Source: Escherichia coli (GTDB lineage: Bacteria; Pseudomonadota; Gammaproteobacteria; Enterobacterales; Enterobacteriaceae). From it: DNA of 7,350 nucleotides. The notes under the pieces are model-generated. The model ran no database searches. It had not been told where the DNA came from and was given only the letters and a program-made list of their open reading frames with translations. Each line of letters opens with the position of its first letter. The first letter of the stretch is position 1. Where the stretch lies: NCBI RefSeq assembly GCF_003334385.1, contig NZ_QOWN01000072.1. The stretch is one strand, 5' to 3'. Positions 245 through 5,645 of this stretch are shown piece by piece. A program made the position numbers and the translations under genes.

Positions 245-433
245 TTATCCAGCCGGTATTTCGTTATTCAGGTTCAGCGATACTTTTTTTAACGGGAGGC
301 ATTCACCGGGGATTTTTTGTTCGTCCCTTACCTGAATGCAGGATGACTTACTGTCATAAATTCCGGTAATCACATTTTGTGGCTCACCCGTTATAAGAAA
401 AACGGTCATCACCAGTGCAAATGCTGAAGTCAC
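245..433 (-). CDS. small hypothetical protein (62 aa), second gene of a leftward two-gene unit
   Basis: ORF track 245..433 (-). GTG start at 433..431 overlaps the upstream stop (GTGA), with GGAG 7 nt upstream. Alternative ATG start at 409 has no SD. No family recognised; position matches the small kilR/ydaE-type genes left of sieB in Rac-like prophages (inference only). Confidence 0.45.
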   Translation of the reverse strand: MTSAFALVMTVFLITGEPQNVITGIYDSKSSCIQVRDEQKIPGECLPLKKVSLNLNNEIPAG

Positions 434-618
434 TGCTGTTCTCCGATAATACCAAGTTCAAGAAGGGCAATTCTGGAAAGTATGGAATTATCATTGAGAA
501 GATAAGGTTCATATTTTCTCATCTTAATGGCATCTTCCGTAAACTCCCGGTTACTGAGCAGAACACCAATATCAAAACAACCTTCAGACGTATTAACGTT
601 TGGTAATAACGTTTCCAT
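430..618 (-). CDS. small hypothetical protein (62 aa)
   Basis: ORF track 430..618 (-). ATG at 618..616 preceded by GAGGA (plus 626-630 complement) at about 7 nt spacing. Amino-acid composition is more protein-like than the overlapping plus-strand ORFs 415..606 and 527..730. No family recognised. Confidence 0.5.
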   Translation of the reverse strand: METLLPNVNTSEGCFDIGVLLSNREFTEDAIKMRKYEPYLLNDNSILSRIALLELGIIGEQQ

Positions 619-795: not shown

Positions 796-1094
796 ACTTT
801 AAAAAGGGTGGCAGAGCAGTCACGGAGTAGAACTGATGCCACCAAATACTACACATGGGTATTGTGGCGGGGCTGTCACTTAAGCGTATGGTCAACCTGA
901 CGACCCGGTGCATTTTCTGGAGCAATGGAGGAAGCCCCAGCCATACTTACCGCCGCGCCATTTCGCGGACTGCCACAACCGGAAGTGCACGGTCGAAGAA
1001 ATTTAACGACAAGCCTTATATGCAAAGGAATCTCGCCGTGCGCTTTCGTGTTGTGTGCCTGCTTTTAACCACGTCAGGCGAGGTGGTTTCCGTC

Positions 1095-1321: not shown

Positions 1322-1768
1322 ATGGACCGGGATGATATTCTTGACAGGGTTTTATATGGTTATTTTCTTGAACAACTATTCTCTGTAGCGACTGGTCGTC
1401 TCGATAAACTTTTCTCAGTGGTGAGTATTATCCTCGGTTCATCTGTCATTGGTGGATTTATTCCTGAAGTTTCTGGAGTTCTCATTGTTGTGATAGCAAC
1501 CGTTCAAACGATTTACGGATTCGGACAAAAGTCAGGTAACGCAATGAGAAAATCCGCAGAATATCTGCAGCTTTATGATGATGCAGAAAAATATTCCGAT
1601 TCGGAATTGAAAATGCAGTTAAAGCTCCTGGAAAAAACAGATGATAATATTTGGTCGTCGCTTAAAGATATCGCAATCTTAAAAACCCAGATCAAAATAG
1701 GAATCTCCGTAGAACAACAAGAGAAACTGTCTGCAAAATCCAAATTGATGCGATTCCTTTGTGGTTAG
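1322..1768 (+). CDS. membrane protein with two predicted TM helices; SieB-like superinfection-exclusion protein by position and topology
   Basis: ORF track 1322..1768 (148 aa). Hydrophobic hairpin LFSVVSIILGSSVIGGFIPEVSGVLIVVIATVQTIYGF followed by a charged, coiled C-terminus. Transcribed opposite to the neighbouring early genes, as sieB is in Rac. AGGTGA lies 10 nt upstream of the ATG. Family assignment is not verified. Confidence 0.6.
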   Translation: MDRDDILDRVLYGYFLEQLFSVATGRLDKLFSVVSIILGSSVIGGFIPEVSGVLIVVIATVQTIYGFGQKSGNAMRKSAEYLQLYDDAEKYSDSELKMQLKLLEKTDDNIWSSLKDIAILKTQIKIGISVEQQEKLSAKSKLMRFLCG

Positions 1769-2196: not shown

Positions 2197-2238
2197 ACAA
2201 TAGCACTGCTATTTTATTCTGTAAATAGTAATGCTATT
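2197..2238 (-). promoter_or_regulatory. OL/pL-like unit: two operator palindromes (ATAGCA-N-TGCTAT type) overlapping a leftward promoter
   Basis: Site A aatagcactgctatt (2199-2213) is a perfect 15-bp palindrome. Site B aatagtaatgctatt (2224-2238) has one mismatch. Centres are 25 bp apart. On the minus strand, -35 TTTACA (plus 2225-2220), a 17-nt spacer and -10 TATTGT (plus 2202-2197) overlap the sites. Same half-sites and geometry as the OR region. Confidence 0.45.
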
Positions 2239-2254
2239 GTTTTTTGGAGGTAAG

Positions 2255-2278
2255 AAAAAAAACCACCCGAAGGTGGTT
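2255..2278 (-). terminator. rho-independent terminator ending the repressor-antitoxin-toxin operon
   Basis: Minus-strand RNA forms AACCACC-UUCG-GGUGGUU (7-bp stem, UUCG tetraloop; plus 2261-2278) followed by a U-tract (plus A-run 2255-2262). Sits 15 nt downstream of the toxin stop codon. Confidence 0.75.
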
Positions 2279-2292
2279 GTTGGTAGGAATGA

Positions 2293-2583
2293 TTAACAGC
2301 TTTTGTTTGGATACTGCCTTCGTGAGTGAACTACATTTACGATCTCGATGTTAGATGCTGTTACTCGGTAAAGTATTATGTAGTTAGGATGGGTCACTAT
2401 CTCACGAAGGCCTAGAGCTCTTTCGCTTGGTGGATACAGGTAAGGGTGTTCAGTAAGTGACAAAACTGATGTTTCAATGCGTATTTTTAGTCTACGTGCA
2501 GCGGGAGGGTTTTCCTTGGCAATATAGGCTACGATCTGACGCAAATCATCACGCGCAGAAGGTAGCCATAAAATGGGCAGCAT
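2293..2583 (-). CDS. parE: type II toxin, RelE/ParE family (ParE-like), 96 aa
   Basis: ORF track 2293..2583 (-). Translation MLPILWLPSARDDLRQIVAYIAKENPPAARRLKIRIETSVLSLTEHPYLYPPSE...GLREIVTHPNYIILYRVTASNIEIVNVVHSRRQYP matches the ParE/RelE pattern from memory. Its ATG overlaps the antitoxin stop (TAATG). Resembles parE of the prophage paaR-paaA-parE systems; paralog number cannot be determined. Confidence 0.85.
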   Translation of the reverse strand: MLPILWLPSARDDLRQIVAYIAKENPPAARRLKIRIETSVLSLTEHPYLYPPSERALGLREIVTHPNYIILYRVTASNIEIVNVVHSRRQYPNKSC

Positions 2584-2774
2584 TACTCACTCCTGTTCGT
2601 CGAAGCTATTTGCGCAATAAGGTTTTCCATTTCAGCCATTACTTCGTCATGCGGAATTGCAGGACGGGGGTCTGCGAGGCTTGCTGCCACTTTGGTGCGT
2701 AACCATTCGTTATAGCTGTTTTCTTGTTCGATTGTTTCAAATTCTGAAATTATCGGGGAAAGGACTGTACTCAT
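2583..2774 (-). CDS. paaA: small antitoxin (63 aa), PaaA-like partner of the ParE toxin
   Basis: ORF track 2583..2774 (-). Lies immediately upstream of, and is translationally coupled to, the ParE-family toxin. GAGGAGG SD 7 nt before the ATG at 2774. Acidic 63-aa protein, the size I recall for PaaA2. Assignment rests on context and length, not a search. Confidence 0.7.
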   Translation of the reverse strand: MSTVLSPIISEFETIEQENSYNEWLRTKVAASLADPRPAIPHDEVMAEMENLIAQIASTNRSE

Positions 2775-2791
2775 GTTCTAACCTCCTCAGA

Positions 2792-3292
2792 TTAGGCGCG
2801 ACGACCTTTTTGCGCCTCTAGCCACCGCGCAACGGTTTCTTCAATTGATTCTTTTTTCTCCTTCATTTCCTTAAGCATTTTCTCTTTGTCTTCTTTTGGG
2901 AAAGCCCTGAACGTCTGGATCAAATCTCGCTCTATAGGTTCTATATTAAACGGAAGTTCGTTTTCCGATTGTTCCATCTCTGCGGGTAAAGCGACAACAT
3001 TATCCTGCTGCAGTTCTTGGGGGTACATCCTTACAATTCGTAACAAGTCTGCCATATCTGGTCTAATTGACTCAGGCGGAACTTGTAGCAACCCAGCGAA
3101 CTTGATAACAGCCTCTAGATTTAAAGGTGTCTGACCATTTAGATAATGGCTTACTGCCCCTTGTGTCGAAAAACCCAGAATTTCTGCCGCACGCTCTTGG
3201 GTTAACCCAAGTTGAGTTTTTTTCGTCGTCCAGATTTCTTTCAGTCTCTGGGCGGCTTGCAGGTCGATCTCTGACAGGGGTTTTCTTTTCAT
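2792..3292 (-). CDS. paaR: HTH (XRE/Cro-CI family) transcriptional repressor, 166 aa; candidate prophage immunity repressor and regulator of the toxin-antitoxin operon (PaaR/RacR-like)
   Basis: ORF track 2792..3292 (-). N-terminal HTH LGLTQERAAEILGFSTQGAVSHYLNG. No LexA/S24 peptidase-like C-terminus. Divergent from the ydaS/ydaT pair across an operator-containing spacer. Stop lies 17 nt before the antitoxin start. Confidence 0.85.
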   Translation of the reverse strand: MKRKPLSEIDLQAAQRLKEIWTTKKTQLGLTQERAAEILGFSTQGAVSHYLNGQTPLNLEAVIKFAGLLQVPPESIRPDMADLLRIVRMYPQELQQDNVVALPAEMEQSENELPFNIEPIERDLIQTFRAFPKEDKEKMLKEMKEKKESIEETVARWLEAQKGRRA

Positions 3293-3399
3293 ACCTTCAA
3301 TTCTAATAAGATTATTAATCTCTTTGAAATAGCGGTGCTATTTACCTTTAAAAATAACAATGCTATTAATATTCATGGTCACATAACATGAGGTGAACA
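3293..3399. promoter_or_regulatory. OR-like divergent promoter-operator region between the repressor and ydaS
   Basis: Operator 1 aatagcggtgctatt (3328-3342) and operator 2 aataacaatgctatt (3353-3367), centres 25 bp apart. Rightward pR-like promoter: -35 TTTACC (3341-3346), 17-nt spacer, -10 TATTAA (3364-3369). The leftward repressor promoter could not be placed; GAAGG abuts the repressor ATG, so the mRNA may be short-leadered. Confidence 0.5.
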
Positions 3400-3663
3400 A
3401 TGAATCTTGGAGAATATTTGCATCATTCCCGTATAACCCAGAAAGATTTTGCTGAAATTGTTGGGGTAACCCAAGGGATGGTAAGCCATGTTATTACTGG
3501 ACGGGCGAAACTTACGGGGGGGAAAGTTTTACGCTGGTGTGAAGCAACAGGGTGGGTAGTGACCCCGCACGAGATTGATAGCAGTACTTACCCCAACCCA
3601 ACCGATGGCATACCTGTTGACTATCAGGCTAACACACAACCCACGCTGGGAGTTGATTCATGA
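3400..3663 (+). CDS. ydaS: Cro-like HTH protein YdaS (87 aa)
   Basis: ORF track 3400..3663. Motif GVTQGMVSHVITGRAKLTGGKVLRWCEATGWVV matches YdaS/Cro-like proteins paired with YdaT in Rac-type prophages. GAGGTG SD at 3390-3395. Stop overlaps the ydaT start (ATGA). Confidence 0.8.
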   Translation: MNLGEYLHHSRITQKDFAEIVGVTQGMVSHVITGRAKLTGGKVLRWCEATGWVVTPHEIDSSTYPNPTDGIPVDYQANTQPTLGVDS

Positions 3664-4085
3664 AAATCAAGCATGAACACATCCGCATGGCGATGAATGT
3701 CTGGGCGCATCCGGACGGCGAAAAAGTACCGGCTGCGAAAATTACCAAAGCGTATTTCGAGCTGGGAATGACGTTCCCGGAACTGTATGACGACAGCCAT
3801 CCGGAAGCCCTGGCCCGTAATACCCAGAAAATTTTCCGCTGGGTGGAGAAGGACACCCCTGATGCTGTTGAAAAAATTCAGGCGCTGTTACCGGCGATCG
3901 AAAAGGCGATGCCGCCTTTGCTGGTGGCCCGTATGCGCAGTCACAGTTCTGAATATTACCGGGAGATCGTCGAACGACGGGATCGGCTGGTGAAAGATGT
4001 GGATGATTTTGTCGCAGCGGCGATCGCCTGGGGCACCCTGACTAACAGTGGTGGTCAGCCTGGTAATGCTGTTGTTGTGCATTGA
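3660..4085 (+). CDS. ydaT: YdaT-family protein (141 aa), the toxic / CII-equivalent partner of YdaS
   Basis: ORF track 3660..4085. Starts MKIKHEHI and is 141 aa, matching my recollection of E. coli Rac YdaT. GGGAG SD 8 nt upstream. A Chi octamer GCTGGTGG lies at 3920-3927. Confidence 0.85.
   Translation: MKIKHEHIRMAMNVWAHPDGEKVPAAKITKAYFELGMTFPELYDDSHPEALARNTQKIFRWVEKDTPDAVEKIQALLPAIEKAMPPLLVARMRSHSSEYYREIVERRDRLVKDVDDFVAAAIAWGTLTNSGGQPGNAVVVH
3920..3927 (+). other. Chi octamer GCTGGTGG (single copy, inside ydaT)
   Basis: Exact plus-strand match to 5'-GCTGGTGG-3' at 3920-3927. No reverse-complement copy was found in the window. Confidence 0.5.
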
Positions 4086-4153
4086 CCAACAATATTTATA
4101 CCGGATTTCTTCCGGAAGTTCGTGGGTAAAGTTCGGTATCAGAAGAGGTGAGT

Positions 4154-5191
4154 ATGGCTAATGCCTGGCTCAGATTGTGGCATGACATGCCAAATGACCC
4201 CAAGTGGCGAACGATTGCCAGGGTATCAGGACAGCCAATCGCAACAGTGATGGCAGTGTATATCCACCTTCTGGTGAGCGCGTCACGAAATGTCACGACA
4301 TGTCACGGCGTGTCACTACGTGGTCACATTGATGTCACGACGGAAGATTTAGCAAGTGCGCTTGATGTGACGGAAGACGTAATTGATTCAATTTTGCATG
4401 CAATGCAGGGGCGGGTTCTGGATGGTGACCTTATTTCCGGATGGGAAAAACGTCAGGTGCTGAAAGAGGACAATGGTAACGTTTCGCAAACGGCAAAATC
4501 CCCGGCAGAGCGCAAGAGAGCGCAGCGGGAGCGCGAAAAGCTGCGGAAATATGATGCTGATTGTCACGATGAGTCACGACGTGTCACGCATCTGTCACGA
4601 CAAGTCACGACAGATAAAGATACAGATACAGAATTAAACCCCACACATAACGCGCGCATGCGCGAGAGTGCTCCAACCGGTGAGTCGCATGGTGCGCCGT
4701 TGCAGACAGCCGAACCTGAATACCTGGACGGCCTGAGCGAACCGATCGGGAAATTTTCGATGACTACTGTCTGGCAGCCGTCGTCGGATTTTCGACAACG
4801 GGCAGCAGTGTGGGGTATGGCTCTGCCTGAGCCGGAATTTACACCTGCTGAGCTTGCCGCATTCCGGGATTACTGGATGGCGGAGGGGAAGGTTTTCACG
4901 CAGGTTCAGTGGGAGCAGAAATTTGCCCGCCACGTGCAGCACGTCAGGGCACAGGTAAAACCAGTCAGCAAGGGGGTAAGCCATGCAGCATCAGGTGGCA
5001 CGGCATCACGGGCAGTTCAGGAAATCCGGGCAGCACGCGAACAGTGGGAACGTGACAACGGATTTATCAGCAACGGAAACGGCCTGGAAGCTGTGGGAGC
5101 TTATGGGGGAGGTGTATTCGAACCGCTGGACACAGAAGAACGGGGCCGCACCTTCGAAGCTCTGGATTGCCCAGATTGGCGCGATGACTGA
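4154..5191 (+). CDS. replication initiator, lambda-O-like: replisome-organizer N-terminal domain, internal iteron-encoding segments, C-terminal region resembling a DnaT-like domain (345 aa)
   Basis: ORF track 4148..5191; preferred start is ATG 4154 with GAGGTG SD at 4145-4150. N-terminus WLRLWHDMPNDPKWRTIA is typical of phage replisome organizers. C-terminal TVWQPSSDFRQRAAVWGMALPEPEFTPAELAAFRDYWMAEG looks DnaT-like (from memory). Two iteron arrays lie inside the gene. Confidence 0.85.
   Translation: MANAWLRLWHDMPNDPKWRTIARVSGQPIATVMAVYIHLLVSASRNVTTCHGVSLRGHIDVTTEDLASALDVTEDVIDSILHAMQGRVLDGDLISGWEKRQVLKEDNGNVSQTAKSPAERKRAQREREKLRKYDADCHDESRRVTHLSRQVTTDKDTDTELNPTHNARMRESAPTGESHGAPLQTAEPEYLDGLSEPIGKFSMTTVWQPSSDFRQRAAVWGMALPEPEFTPAELAAFRDYWMAEGKVFTQVQWEQKFARHVQHVRAQVKPVSKGVSHAASGGTASRAVQEIRAAREQWERDNGFISNGNGLEAVGAYGGGVFEPLDTEERGRTFEALDCPDWRDD
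4281..4342 (+). repeat. iteron array 1: six direct repeats of a TGTCACGAC-like unit at 10-11 bp spacing
   Basis: GTCAC cores at 4282, 4292, 4302, 4312, 4323 and 4334. A degenerate GTGAC copy follows at 4367-4371. The array encodes SRNVTTCHGVSLRGHIDVTT within the initiator. Confidence 0.6.
4561..4640 (+). repeat. iteron array 2 (five TGTCACGAC-like repeats) with adjacent A/T-rich GATACA repeats; candidate origin core
   Basis: GTCAC cores at 4563, 4573, 4583, 4594 and 4604, followed by gataaagatacagatacagaattaaacc (4613-4640). Layout parallels lambda ori (iterons plus an A/T-rich region inside the O gene). Confidence 0.6.
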
Positions 5192-5645
5192 ACAGCAAAT
5201 CCGGCTGGTCTGCCGTCAGTGCATGGACCGCTGCCGGGCGGGTGAAACGTGGCCCCCAGACCTGGCTGAGTTTGTTGCACTGATTTCGGAGAGTGGGGCA
5301 AATCCATTTGGTCTTACGGTGGATGCAGTGATGGAAGAGTACCGGCGCTGGCGCAATGAATCCTGGCGATACGACGGGAGTGATAAATACCCGTGGCCAC
5401 AGCCTGTGCTGTACCACATCTGCCTCGAAATGCGTACCAGAGGGATTGAGCGCCAGATGACGCAGGGTGAGTTAAAACGACTTGCGGAACGGCAACTGAC
5501 GAAATGGGCAAAGCATGTTGGTAACGGGATGAGTGTTCCGCCAGTGCGACGACAACTGGAAGGGGCGAAACACCCGCAAGGGCCAACGCCAATTGAACGG
5601 CTGAAACAGGAATACGAACGCCGGAAGGCAGCTGGTTTTATTTGA
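4983..5645 (+). CDS. replication protein, lambda-P-like helicase loader (220 aa as drawn; start uncertain)
   Basis: ORF track 4983..5645. Segments WPPDLAEFVALISE, KYPWPQPVLYHI, ELKRLAERQL and SVPPVRRQLE align with lambda P as I remember it. ATG 4983 has the best SD (AGGGGG, 6 nt) but overlaps the O-like gene by 209 nt. Alternative starts are ATG 5103 (weak SD) and ATG 5184 (ATGACTGA overlap with the O stop). Confidence 0.75.
   Translation: MQHQVARHHGQFRKSGQHANSGNVTTDLSATETAWKLWELMGEVYSNRWTQKNGAAPSKLWIAQIGAMTEQQIRLVCRQCMDRCRAGETWPPDLAEFVALISESGANPFGLTVDAVMEEYRRWRNESWRYDGSDKYPWPQPVLYHICLEMRTRGIERQMTQGELKRLAERQLTKWAKHVGNGMSVPPVRRQLEGAKHPQGPTPIERLKQEYERRKAAGFI

Follow-up and report, generated by a model that had tools for sequence, protein, structure and literature searches.

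A ydaS-ydaT-type gene pair in an Escherichia coli prophage probably encodes the Cro-like and CII-like regulators of a switch related to that of CP-933P

Introduction

Does a pair of small genes labelled ydaS and ydaT, placed directly under the repressor-controlled rightward promoter of a prophage, threaten the host cell, or does it regulate lysogeny? The question is raised by a locus in a 7,350-nt stretch of Escherichia coli DNA (contig NZ_QOWN01000072.1), which we analysed as a whole and refer to as the window. The labels 'toxin YdaT family protein' and 'ydaS' invite a toxin reading, one that the closest experimental systems do not support. A first-pass annotation made from the window alone had proposed that a single repressor holds off two lethal outputs here, YdaT and a ParE toxin. 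In the O157:H7 prophage CP-933P, the PaaR2, YdaS and YdaT proteins are the analogues of CI, Cro and CII and together give a bistable switch (PMC8630535). We argue that the two proteins of the pair very probably (at a rough probability of 0.85) serve as the Cro and CII counterparts in a prophage switch of the ordinary lambda type, an uncharacterised one that is related to the switches of CP-933P, Rac and Qin.

Results

The two rightward genes

The pair and its immediate translation signals are as follows.

3390-3395, plus strand: Shine-Dalgarno sequence GAGGTG, 4 nt before the ATG of the 87-aa gene
3400-3663, plus strand: 87-aa HTH_3 protein, Cro analogue (open reading frame list, Pfam)
3660-3663, plus strand: ATGA stop/start overlap, read from the sequence
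3660-4085, plus strand: YdaT, CII-like transcriptional activator, 141 aa (PDB, Pfam, PHROG, BLASTP)

The second gene encodes a YdaT protein, as the first-pass annotation had held: it shares 31% identity with the YdaT of the K-12 Rac prophage (E 2e-14) and matches Pfam PF06254 (9.9e-10). Its description as a CII-like DNA-binding protein stands as well, given the match to PHROG 163, 'CII-like transcriptional activator' (2e-46). Its sequence also matches two solved structures, PDB 8bt1, the CP-933P YdaT (E 7e-82), and PDB 3c4r, likewise a YdaT (E 3e-77). The identity to CP-933P YdaT reaches 89%, with 116 of the first 120 residues the same, and the differences are mostly found in the C-terminal tail, at residues 125-141; this tail is disordered in the CP-933P crystal (PMC9986795). 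The CP-933P protein forms tetramers, has a POU-like HTH and binds DNA at a defined operator (PMC9986795). In the window protein, the Arg-Trp of the recognition helix is kept as R60 and W61 within ...QKIFRW... (R57/W58 in Rac), and residues 100-120 are identical to the core of helix alpha6 of 8bt1; judged by identity to a solved structure, both the tetramerisation helix and the recognition residues of the family are present. The translational coupling of the two genes was also correctly noted: the ATGA overlap lies at 3660-3663 and is kept in four related loci (L003, L005, L007 and L009 in our numbering). In the O104:H4 copy (L008), a 1-nt deletion before the YdaT box, described below, removes the ATGA and leaves a 17-nt overlap instead.

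The first gene is a different matter. It had been taken for ydaS, an assignment that did not survive comparison, as BLASTP gave no alignment between the 87-aa protein and K-12 YdaS at E <= 100 and Pfam PF15943 did not match it at E <= 10. The PF15943 domain was likewise found in 0 of its 26 homologues, which form a small, enterobacterial family. The matches that we did obtain are to Pfam HTH_3 (6.9e-6) and to PHROG 35, 'transcriptional repressor' (4e-16), while a PDB search returned marginal HTH matches only; BLASTP comparisons with DicC and with a P22_Cro-family protein produced no alignment in either case. A distant relationship to YdaS can be seen in an alignment with the CP-933P protein (28% identity over 60 aa) and, at the profile level, in an hhalign comparison of the 87-aa family with two YdaS proteins, those of K-12 and CP-933P (95.7% probability, E 9e-9, 19% identity, 75 columns). 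These two alignments are best read as pointing to a common HTH fold class rather than to membership of the YdaS family. The 'ydaS' label therefore reflects position and a remote HTH relationship only, because direct similarity is lacking and the match exists at the profile level alone. The protein is of the Cro/XRE HTH type, and its position makes it a Cro analogue.

The leftward operon and its surroundings

On the other side of the intergenic region, three genes run leftward.

2792-3292, minus strand: repressor, 166 aa, HTH, with a CI-like N-terminal domain and a PaaR2/DicA-like C-terminal region
2583-2774, minus strand: PaaA2-like antitoxin, 63 aa, after a 17-bp gap from the repressor
2293-2583, minus strand: ParE2-like toxin, 96 aa, its start overlapping the antitoxin stop
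2261-2278, minus strand: terminator-like hairpin and T-run after parE, between parE and the OL operators

The repressor gene and the 87-aa gene diverge from each other across 107 bp. The repressor is composite. Its N-terminal domain is homologous to that of lambda CI (E 1.6e-9), and residues 2-90 share 54% identity with the CI of an Stx2 phage, its last 44 aa share 50% identity with PaaR2, and its C-terminus also matches that of DicA. A BLASTP comparison with RacR gave nothing meaningful. Pfam finds HTH_3 and HTH_31 only in this protein and no S24 peptidase domain; the switch is probably not SOS-inducible, because the repressor is devoid of this autocleavage domain.

The antitoxin matches PDB 3zbe (E 1.7e-22), is 71% identical to PaaA2 and scores above the curated cut-off of the NCBIfam RelB-family antitoxin model, and the toxin matches PDB 5cw7_B (E 5.7e-35) and is 64% identical to ParE2. 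The two genes are translationally coupled via TAATG. As for the PaaR2-homologous regulator expected with such a module, the regulator found 17 bp upstream is PaaR2-like in its last 44 aa only, its DNA-binding domain being CI-like. We searched the literature for PaaR1/PaaA1 identity that could be set beside this allele and found nothing usable. The hairpin that follows parE is conserved in relatives.

Over 2200-4200, the window matches at 100% identity a prophage in the chromosome of E. coli JNEC-KY176, in which integrase, excisionase, exonuclease and dicB genes lie to the left of the matching segment and replication genes to its right. The replication genes to the right of the pair are O/P-like. 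tRNA genes were looked for and none was found.

This wider view bears on whether the genes could be non-functional relics of a decaying cryptic prophage. Several pseudogenes are indeed present elsewhere in the matching prophage, and CP-933P, the closest characterised system, is itself a cryptic prophage. However, the open reading frames of both regulators, the repressor, the antitoxin and the toxin are all intact (5 of 5), the matching prophage retains its integrase, excisionase and replication genes, and the cassette recurs, 80-100% identical and with its sites conserved, in 72 complete genomes. We therefore hold the relic explanation to be very unlikely.

Operators and promoters

The intergenic region and the segment beyond parE carry the following elements, together with two genes of the left arm.

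3328-3342: operator OR-A, AATAGCGGTGCTATT, abutting the PRM-like -35 and overlapping the PR-like -35
3353-3367: operator OR-B, AATAACAATGCTATT, overlapping the PR-like spacer and -10
2199-2213 and 2224-2238: OL operator pair, overlapping the PL-like promoter, just beyond parE
3300-3328, minus strand: candidate PRM-like promoter, TTCAAA-17-TAGAAT (consensus scan)
3341-3369, plus strand: candidate PR promoter, TTTACC-17-TATTAA (proposed by eye)
2197-2225, minus strand: PL-like promoter, TTTACA-17-TATTGT with a TG extension (scan)
806-857: DicF small RNA, downstream of the PL-like promoter (Rfam, 62 bits)
430-618: DicB homologue, downstream of the PL-like promoter (61% identity)

Each operator is a 15-bp palindrome that follows the pattern AATAGC-N3-GCTATT. 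The two copies of a pair are spaced by 25 bp at OR and at OL alike, and only two clear copies are found on each side. The statement that the gene pair sits directly downstream of an operator pair is thus borne out, the palindromes lying in the 107-bp intergenic region. A search for the operator pattern with up to 2 mismatches gave 5 matches in the window where 0.23 were expected, a number reached in none of 200 shuffles (0/200); the fifth match, at 120-134, is weak and has 2 mismatches. In relatives whose cassettes are 80-96% identical, the arms AATAG/CTATT are largely kept and the central bases vary, which is the pattern that one would expect of an operator bound by a dimer.

The hexamers of the PRM-like promoter are invariant in 4 relatives. 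Its -10 ends 8 nt before the ATG of the repressor, so the repressor mRNA is probably leaderless, as are the mRNAs of paaR2 and of lambda cI (PMC8630535). The PR candidate falls below the threshold of the consensus promoter scan; it has the same geometry relative to its operators as the PL-like promoter has to its own. The locus thus shows the layout of a lambda-type immunity region: divergent repressor-type and cro-type genes, a short gap, palindromic operators over the two promoters and further operators at PL.

The YdaT box and a candidate PRE-like promoter

Two further elements lie at the junction of the two rightward genes.

3653-3670: YdaT box, TTGATTCATGAAAATCAA (TTGATT-N6-AATCAA), exact match
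3626-3634, minus strand: possible extended -10 (TGtTAGCCT) of a YdaT-dependent leftward PRE-like promoter, tentatively placed

The YdaT box, which fits the inverted repeat (T/A)TGATT-N6-AATCAA of the family, occurs once in the window, as an exact copy, and spans the stop codon of the 87-aa gene and the start codon of ydaT. The OM site footprinted with CP-933P YdaT is identical to it (PMC9986795), and its core is conserved in all related loci. The YdaT-box of Rac, also footprinted and likewise placed on the ydaT start codon, differs from the window box by one base, and CP-933P YdaT can activate the Rac box, so that cross-activation between homologues occurs (PMC11879457). Furthermore, Rac YdaT too activates leftward transcription that leads back into the repressor operon (PMC11879457).

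Could a promoter of this kind exist in the window? The 3′ ends of three unrelated cro-analogue genes each carry, on the minus strand and 21 nt downstream of the box, a -10-like hexamer: TACAAT in CP-933P, TATCCT in a P22_Cro-type locus and TAGCCT in the window. With a PRE-like -10 at 3626-3634, the centre of the YdaT box would fall at about -42. Judging from primer positions, this -10 position falls inside the CP-933P fragment that has YdaT-dependent promoter activity. The consensus promoter scan makes no call for a PRE-like promoter here, and the constant distance between the -10-like element and the box is suggestive only. As regards CP-933P, it is reported to be unclear how YdaT affects the levels of PaaR2 (PMC11879457).

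Are the outputs of the locus toxic?

The proposal of two lethal outputs under one repressor takes its model from Rac. There, cells that lose RacR die through the action of ydaS-ydaT (PMC5700373, PMC5700377), and overexpression of YdaT, which activates the host rcsA promoter, leads to filamentation and death (PMC11879457). If the same held here, the repressor would be essential as RacR is, the derepressed pair would kill the host and ParE would be a second lethal output. The YdaT of the window is homologous to that of Rac, and in CP-933P prolonged overexpression of PaaR2 and YdaS slows growth (PMC8630535).

The closest relatives tell otherwise. No toxicity was seen for CP-933P YdaT (PMC8630535), which cannot activate the rcsA promoter, the route by which the Rac protein acts on its host (PMC11879457). 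The window YdaT, at 89% identity, is of this CP-933P type, and the first protein of the pair is no YdaS orthologue. Moreover, paaR2 stop mutants of the cloned CP-933P region are viable and were analysed as growing, ydaST-on populations; the activity of ParE2 was equal between the two states, neither the switch state nor transcriptional activation activating it (PMC8630535). Two lethal outputs are consequently unsupported, as the window YdaT falls into one clade with the CP-933P protein, which showed no toxicity, and as ParE2 is indifferent to the state of the switch. Nor would parE be held off by the repressor alone, because it is co-transcribed with its antitoxin and with the repressor in a single operon. 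This part of the first-pass annotation thus lacks support, and we regard lethal derepression of the Rac kind as decidedly improbable at this locus. If loss of the repressor does prove lethal, DicF and DicB on the PL arm would be the more plausible candidates for harmful outputs.

Distribution and mosaicism

The repressor/cro cassette was found in 72 of 5426 complete E. coli genomes, O145:H28 and O104:H4 strains being among the carriers. The copies are 80-100% identical, and their open reading frames, operators, promoter hexamers and box are conserved. Gene order and homologies, like the operator and box sequences and this conservation, are direct observations. A DNA alignment with a CP-933P-type locus shows homology across parE, paaA and the 3′ end of the repressor gene; beyond this point the homology is lost, and it is regained precisely at the YdaT box.

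At least two different immunity cassettes precede a gene for the exact CP-933P YdaT protein: PaaR2/YdaS, accompanied by the toxin-antitoxin module, and S24-CI/P22_Cro, which lacks it. The window provides a third combination in which the same ydaT allele follows another repressor/cro cassette. The presence of ydaT behind three different cassettes is what would be expected of a CII-type module in mosaic lambdoid phages. In isolated phage genomes, the matches comprise only ydaT and its box and begin at the box, in three phages being limited to 37 bp around it, and several of the phage records label the matching ydaT 'activator protein cII'. The full cassette, or the full-length repressor, was present in no record of an isolated phage genome, and no named immunity type could be assigned.

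This mosaicism also speaks to the idea that the pair is a type II toxin-antitoxin system, with YdaS as the antitoxin and YdaT as the toxin. The Pfam name 'YdaT_toxin', the RefSeq product 'toxin YdaT family protein' and the overlapping two-gene arrangement would all fit such a system. However, these names go back to a prediction made by computation, which later work contradicted (Jobling letter; PMC8630535), YdaT is a tetrameric DNA-binding protein with a defined operator (PMC9986795), and ydaT occupies the cII position, before the replication genes. The same ydaT stands behind several unrelated genes, one of them of the P22_Cro family, which argues against a cognate antitoxin. On the homologue literature and on the occurrence of ydaT behind unrelated upstream genes, we reject this explanation, whose probability appears negligible.

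It is tempting to see in the alignment with CP-933P a natural domain swap, by which a CP-933P-like region exchanged its own elements for an Stx/lambda-type CI DNA-binding domain, with operators and a cro gene that were new to it, and kept its PaaR2/DicA-type C-terminal region and its PaaA/ParE genes; we offer this history as a possibility that is more doubtful than not. The breakpoints that it would need, one inside the repressor gene and one exactly at the YdaT box, are put forward just as tentatively. If the toxin-antitoxin module does select for recombinants that keep it, loci such as this one would be a direct natural test of the idea that an addiction module shapes recombination in prophage immunity regions.

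The position of the toxin-antitoxin genes inside the repressor operon suggests another role for the locus, that of an addiction device coupled to the switch. When the cro analogue is on, PRM would be shut, the labile PaaA would decay and ParE would be freed, punishing the loss of the repressor or of the immunity region. In CP-933P, YdaS represses PRM strongly, and the RAE2 locus stabilises plasmids through post-segregational killing and was proposed by its authors to protect the immunity region from replacement (PMC8630535). The window, where the module and the 3′ end of the repressor gene are retained and the N-terminal domain, operators and cro gene are exchanged, could be read in the same sense. 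Nevertheless, the CP-933P toxin-antitoxin operon is still transcribed when ydaST is on, with SOS-positive cells equally rare in both states (PMC8630535), and prophages that have the same ydaT without a toxin-antitoxin module exist (L005). We thus judge switch-coupled addiction to be unlikely.

Discussion

A proposed switch

Our analysis favors a CI/Cro/CII-type switch as the reading of the whole locus, at the same rough probability as for the gene pair. A non-cleavable repressor of the CI type would bind the AATAGC-N3-GCTATT palindromes at OR and OL and shut off the PR-like and PL-like promoters. Its transcript, PRM-like and probably leaderless, would carry the PaaA/ParE addiction module as well, and the repressor would sustain its own operon. 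Should PR fire, the 87-aa protein would act as the Cro analogue, competing at the same operators and turning PRM down. The YdaT tetramer, for its part, may bind the box that lies on its own start codon and activate a PRE-like promoter, located within the last part of the cro-analogue gene and pointing leftward, from which transcription would run back through the repressor-antitoxin-toxin operon. The combined effect would be a bistable lysogeny switch and not a toxin pair.

For the window allele, we infer which protein acts at which site, where the promoters lie and that the pair is non-toxic. In CP-933P, PaaR2 and YdaS bind shared operators with opposite preference (PMC8630535). Such a binding hierarchy, and bistability with it, are extrapolated to the window, because homology to CP-933P is lacking in its repressor N-terminal domain, its cro analogue and its operators.

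What does the locus add? Its main use is to correct the toxin reading that names in genome annotations invite. It also brings an apparently heteroimmune allele to the SOS-insensitive switches of CP-933P, Rac and Qin. [quoted passage not shown] Its clear exchange points could serve comparative work on the movement of the CII-type module and of embedded toxin-antitoxin genes between prophages.

Comparison with known systems

The closest system is CP-933P/Sp12 of O157:H7. It has in common with the window the PL/OL region, parE, paaA, a repressor without an S24 domain, divergent promoters with shared operators, a cro analogue followed by an overlapping ydaT, the replication genes and DicB on the left arm. 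The differences are concentrated in the center of the locus. PaaR2, the CP-933P repressor, has 123 aa, as against 166 aa in the window, where the N-terminal domain is of the lambda/Stx-CI type; its cro analogue is YdaS, whereas that of the window belongs to another HTH_3 family, with 87 aa and without PF15943. The CP-933P operators are repeats of the GTTTAGTAA type, in contrast to the AATAGC-N3-GCTATT pairs found here, and the intergenic region measures 97 bp instead of 107 bp. The replication genes differ too, being of the HTH_36/IstB type in CP-933P and of the O/P type in the window. Since the N-terminal domain of the repressor, the cro analogue and the operators all differ, the window allele is probably heteroimmune to CP-933P.

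The Rac prophage of K-12 likewise carries a cro-analogue/YdaT pair, placed before replication genes and divergent from a repressor gene, as well as a DUF1391 gene to the left of the repressor. Its ydaS and ydaT are separated by a 22-bp gap, whereas the two genes of the window overlap, and it lacks a toxin-antitoxin module where the window has PaaA/ParE. The two also part on toxicity: Rac YdaT is toxic via rcsA, an activity that YdaT of the CP-933P type does not have (PMC11879457).

The Qin prophage (dicA/dicC, ydfABC-dicF-dicB) resembles the window in its DUF1391 gene and in the DicF and DicB that follow a repressor-controlled promoter. The C-terminal region of DicA resembles that of the window repressor, but DicC is unrelated to the window cro analogue. 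Beyond dicC, the K-12 prophage carries ydfX and ydfW in the place that ydaT takes in the window, and, unlike the window, it has no toxin-antitoxin module between dicA and the dicB operon.

Phage lambda, finally, has the same general plan, with operators at two sites (about 1.1 kb apart in the window) and the site of a CII-type activator at the cro/cII junction. Its CII is unrelated in sequence to the YdaT of the window, and its CI carries the S24 autocleavage domain that the window repressor lacks. In the place of rexAB, the window has its toxin-antitoxin genes.

Mosaic junctions and the repressor

The YdaT box (TTGATT-N6-AATCAA, 3653-3670) is a mosaic junction. Homology with the CP-933P-type loci and with ten phage genomes begins at this box, and in three phages (genome matches H73-H75) the match is confined to 37 bp (3647-3683, 97% identity) that correspond to the surroundings of the box and the initial ydaT codons. 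In the related locus of E. coli O104:H4 2009EL-2071 (L008, 2109-2384 of that locus), one nucleotide is deleted immediately 5′ of the box, which extends the ORF of the cro analogue to 91 aa and leaves a 17-nt overlap with ydaT in place of the ATGA overlap. Translational coupling by ATGA is therefore not strictly conserved.

The repressor (2792-3292, minus strand) looks chimeric. Its residues 2-90 are similar to CI of Stx2-phage and lambda, its final 44 residues to PaaR2 and DicA (the CP-933P and Qin repressors), and the CP-933P DNA homology stops within its gene.

We also noticed that TCTAATAAGATTATT, at 3302-3316, matches the operator OR-B at 9 of 15 positions and overlaps the −10 of the PRM-like promoter. 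This element, unchanged in three of four relatives, is possibly a weak third operator; it could be an analogue of OR3 or else a chance resemblance.

Replication region

4148-5191, plus strand: O-like replication initiator gene
4282-4327: iteron array, inside the O-like gene
4562-4611: iteron array, inside the O-like gene
4983-5645, plus strand: 220-aa ORF as listed

Both arrays consist of units of about 10 bp (consensus GTCACGACNT, 3.5-4.8 copies), and together they are probably the replication origin of the prophage. The 220-aa ORF shares about 200 bp with the 3′ end of the O-like gene; RefSeq has instead a 153-aa "replication protein P" starting at 5184. The longer version is probably artefactual, produced by calling the ORF from the first in-frame start.

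Left arm

430-618, minus strand: homologue of the cell-division inhibitor DicB (RefSeq annotation dicB)
806-857, minus strand: DicF antisense sRNA (Rfam RF00039)
1322-1768, plus strand: 148-aa ORF (PHROG 6315)

The 148-aa ORF, whose neighbours lie on the other strand, has the position held by sieB in Rac. The RF00039 match to DicF is full length (62 bits versus a gathering score of 48), and the PL-like promoter lies upstream of DicF on this leftward arm. The DicB homologue is 61% identical to K-12 DicB. DicF and DicB are the more plausible candidates for harmful outputs upon loss of the repressor; together they make up a dicB operon of the type known from Qin.
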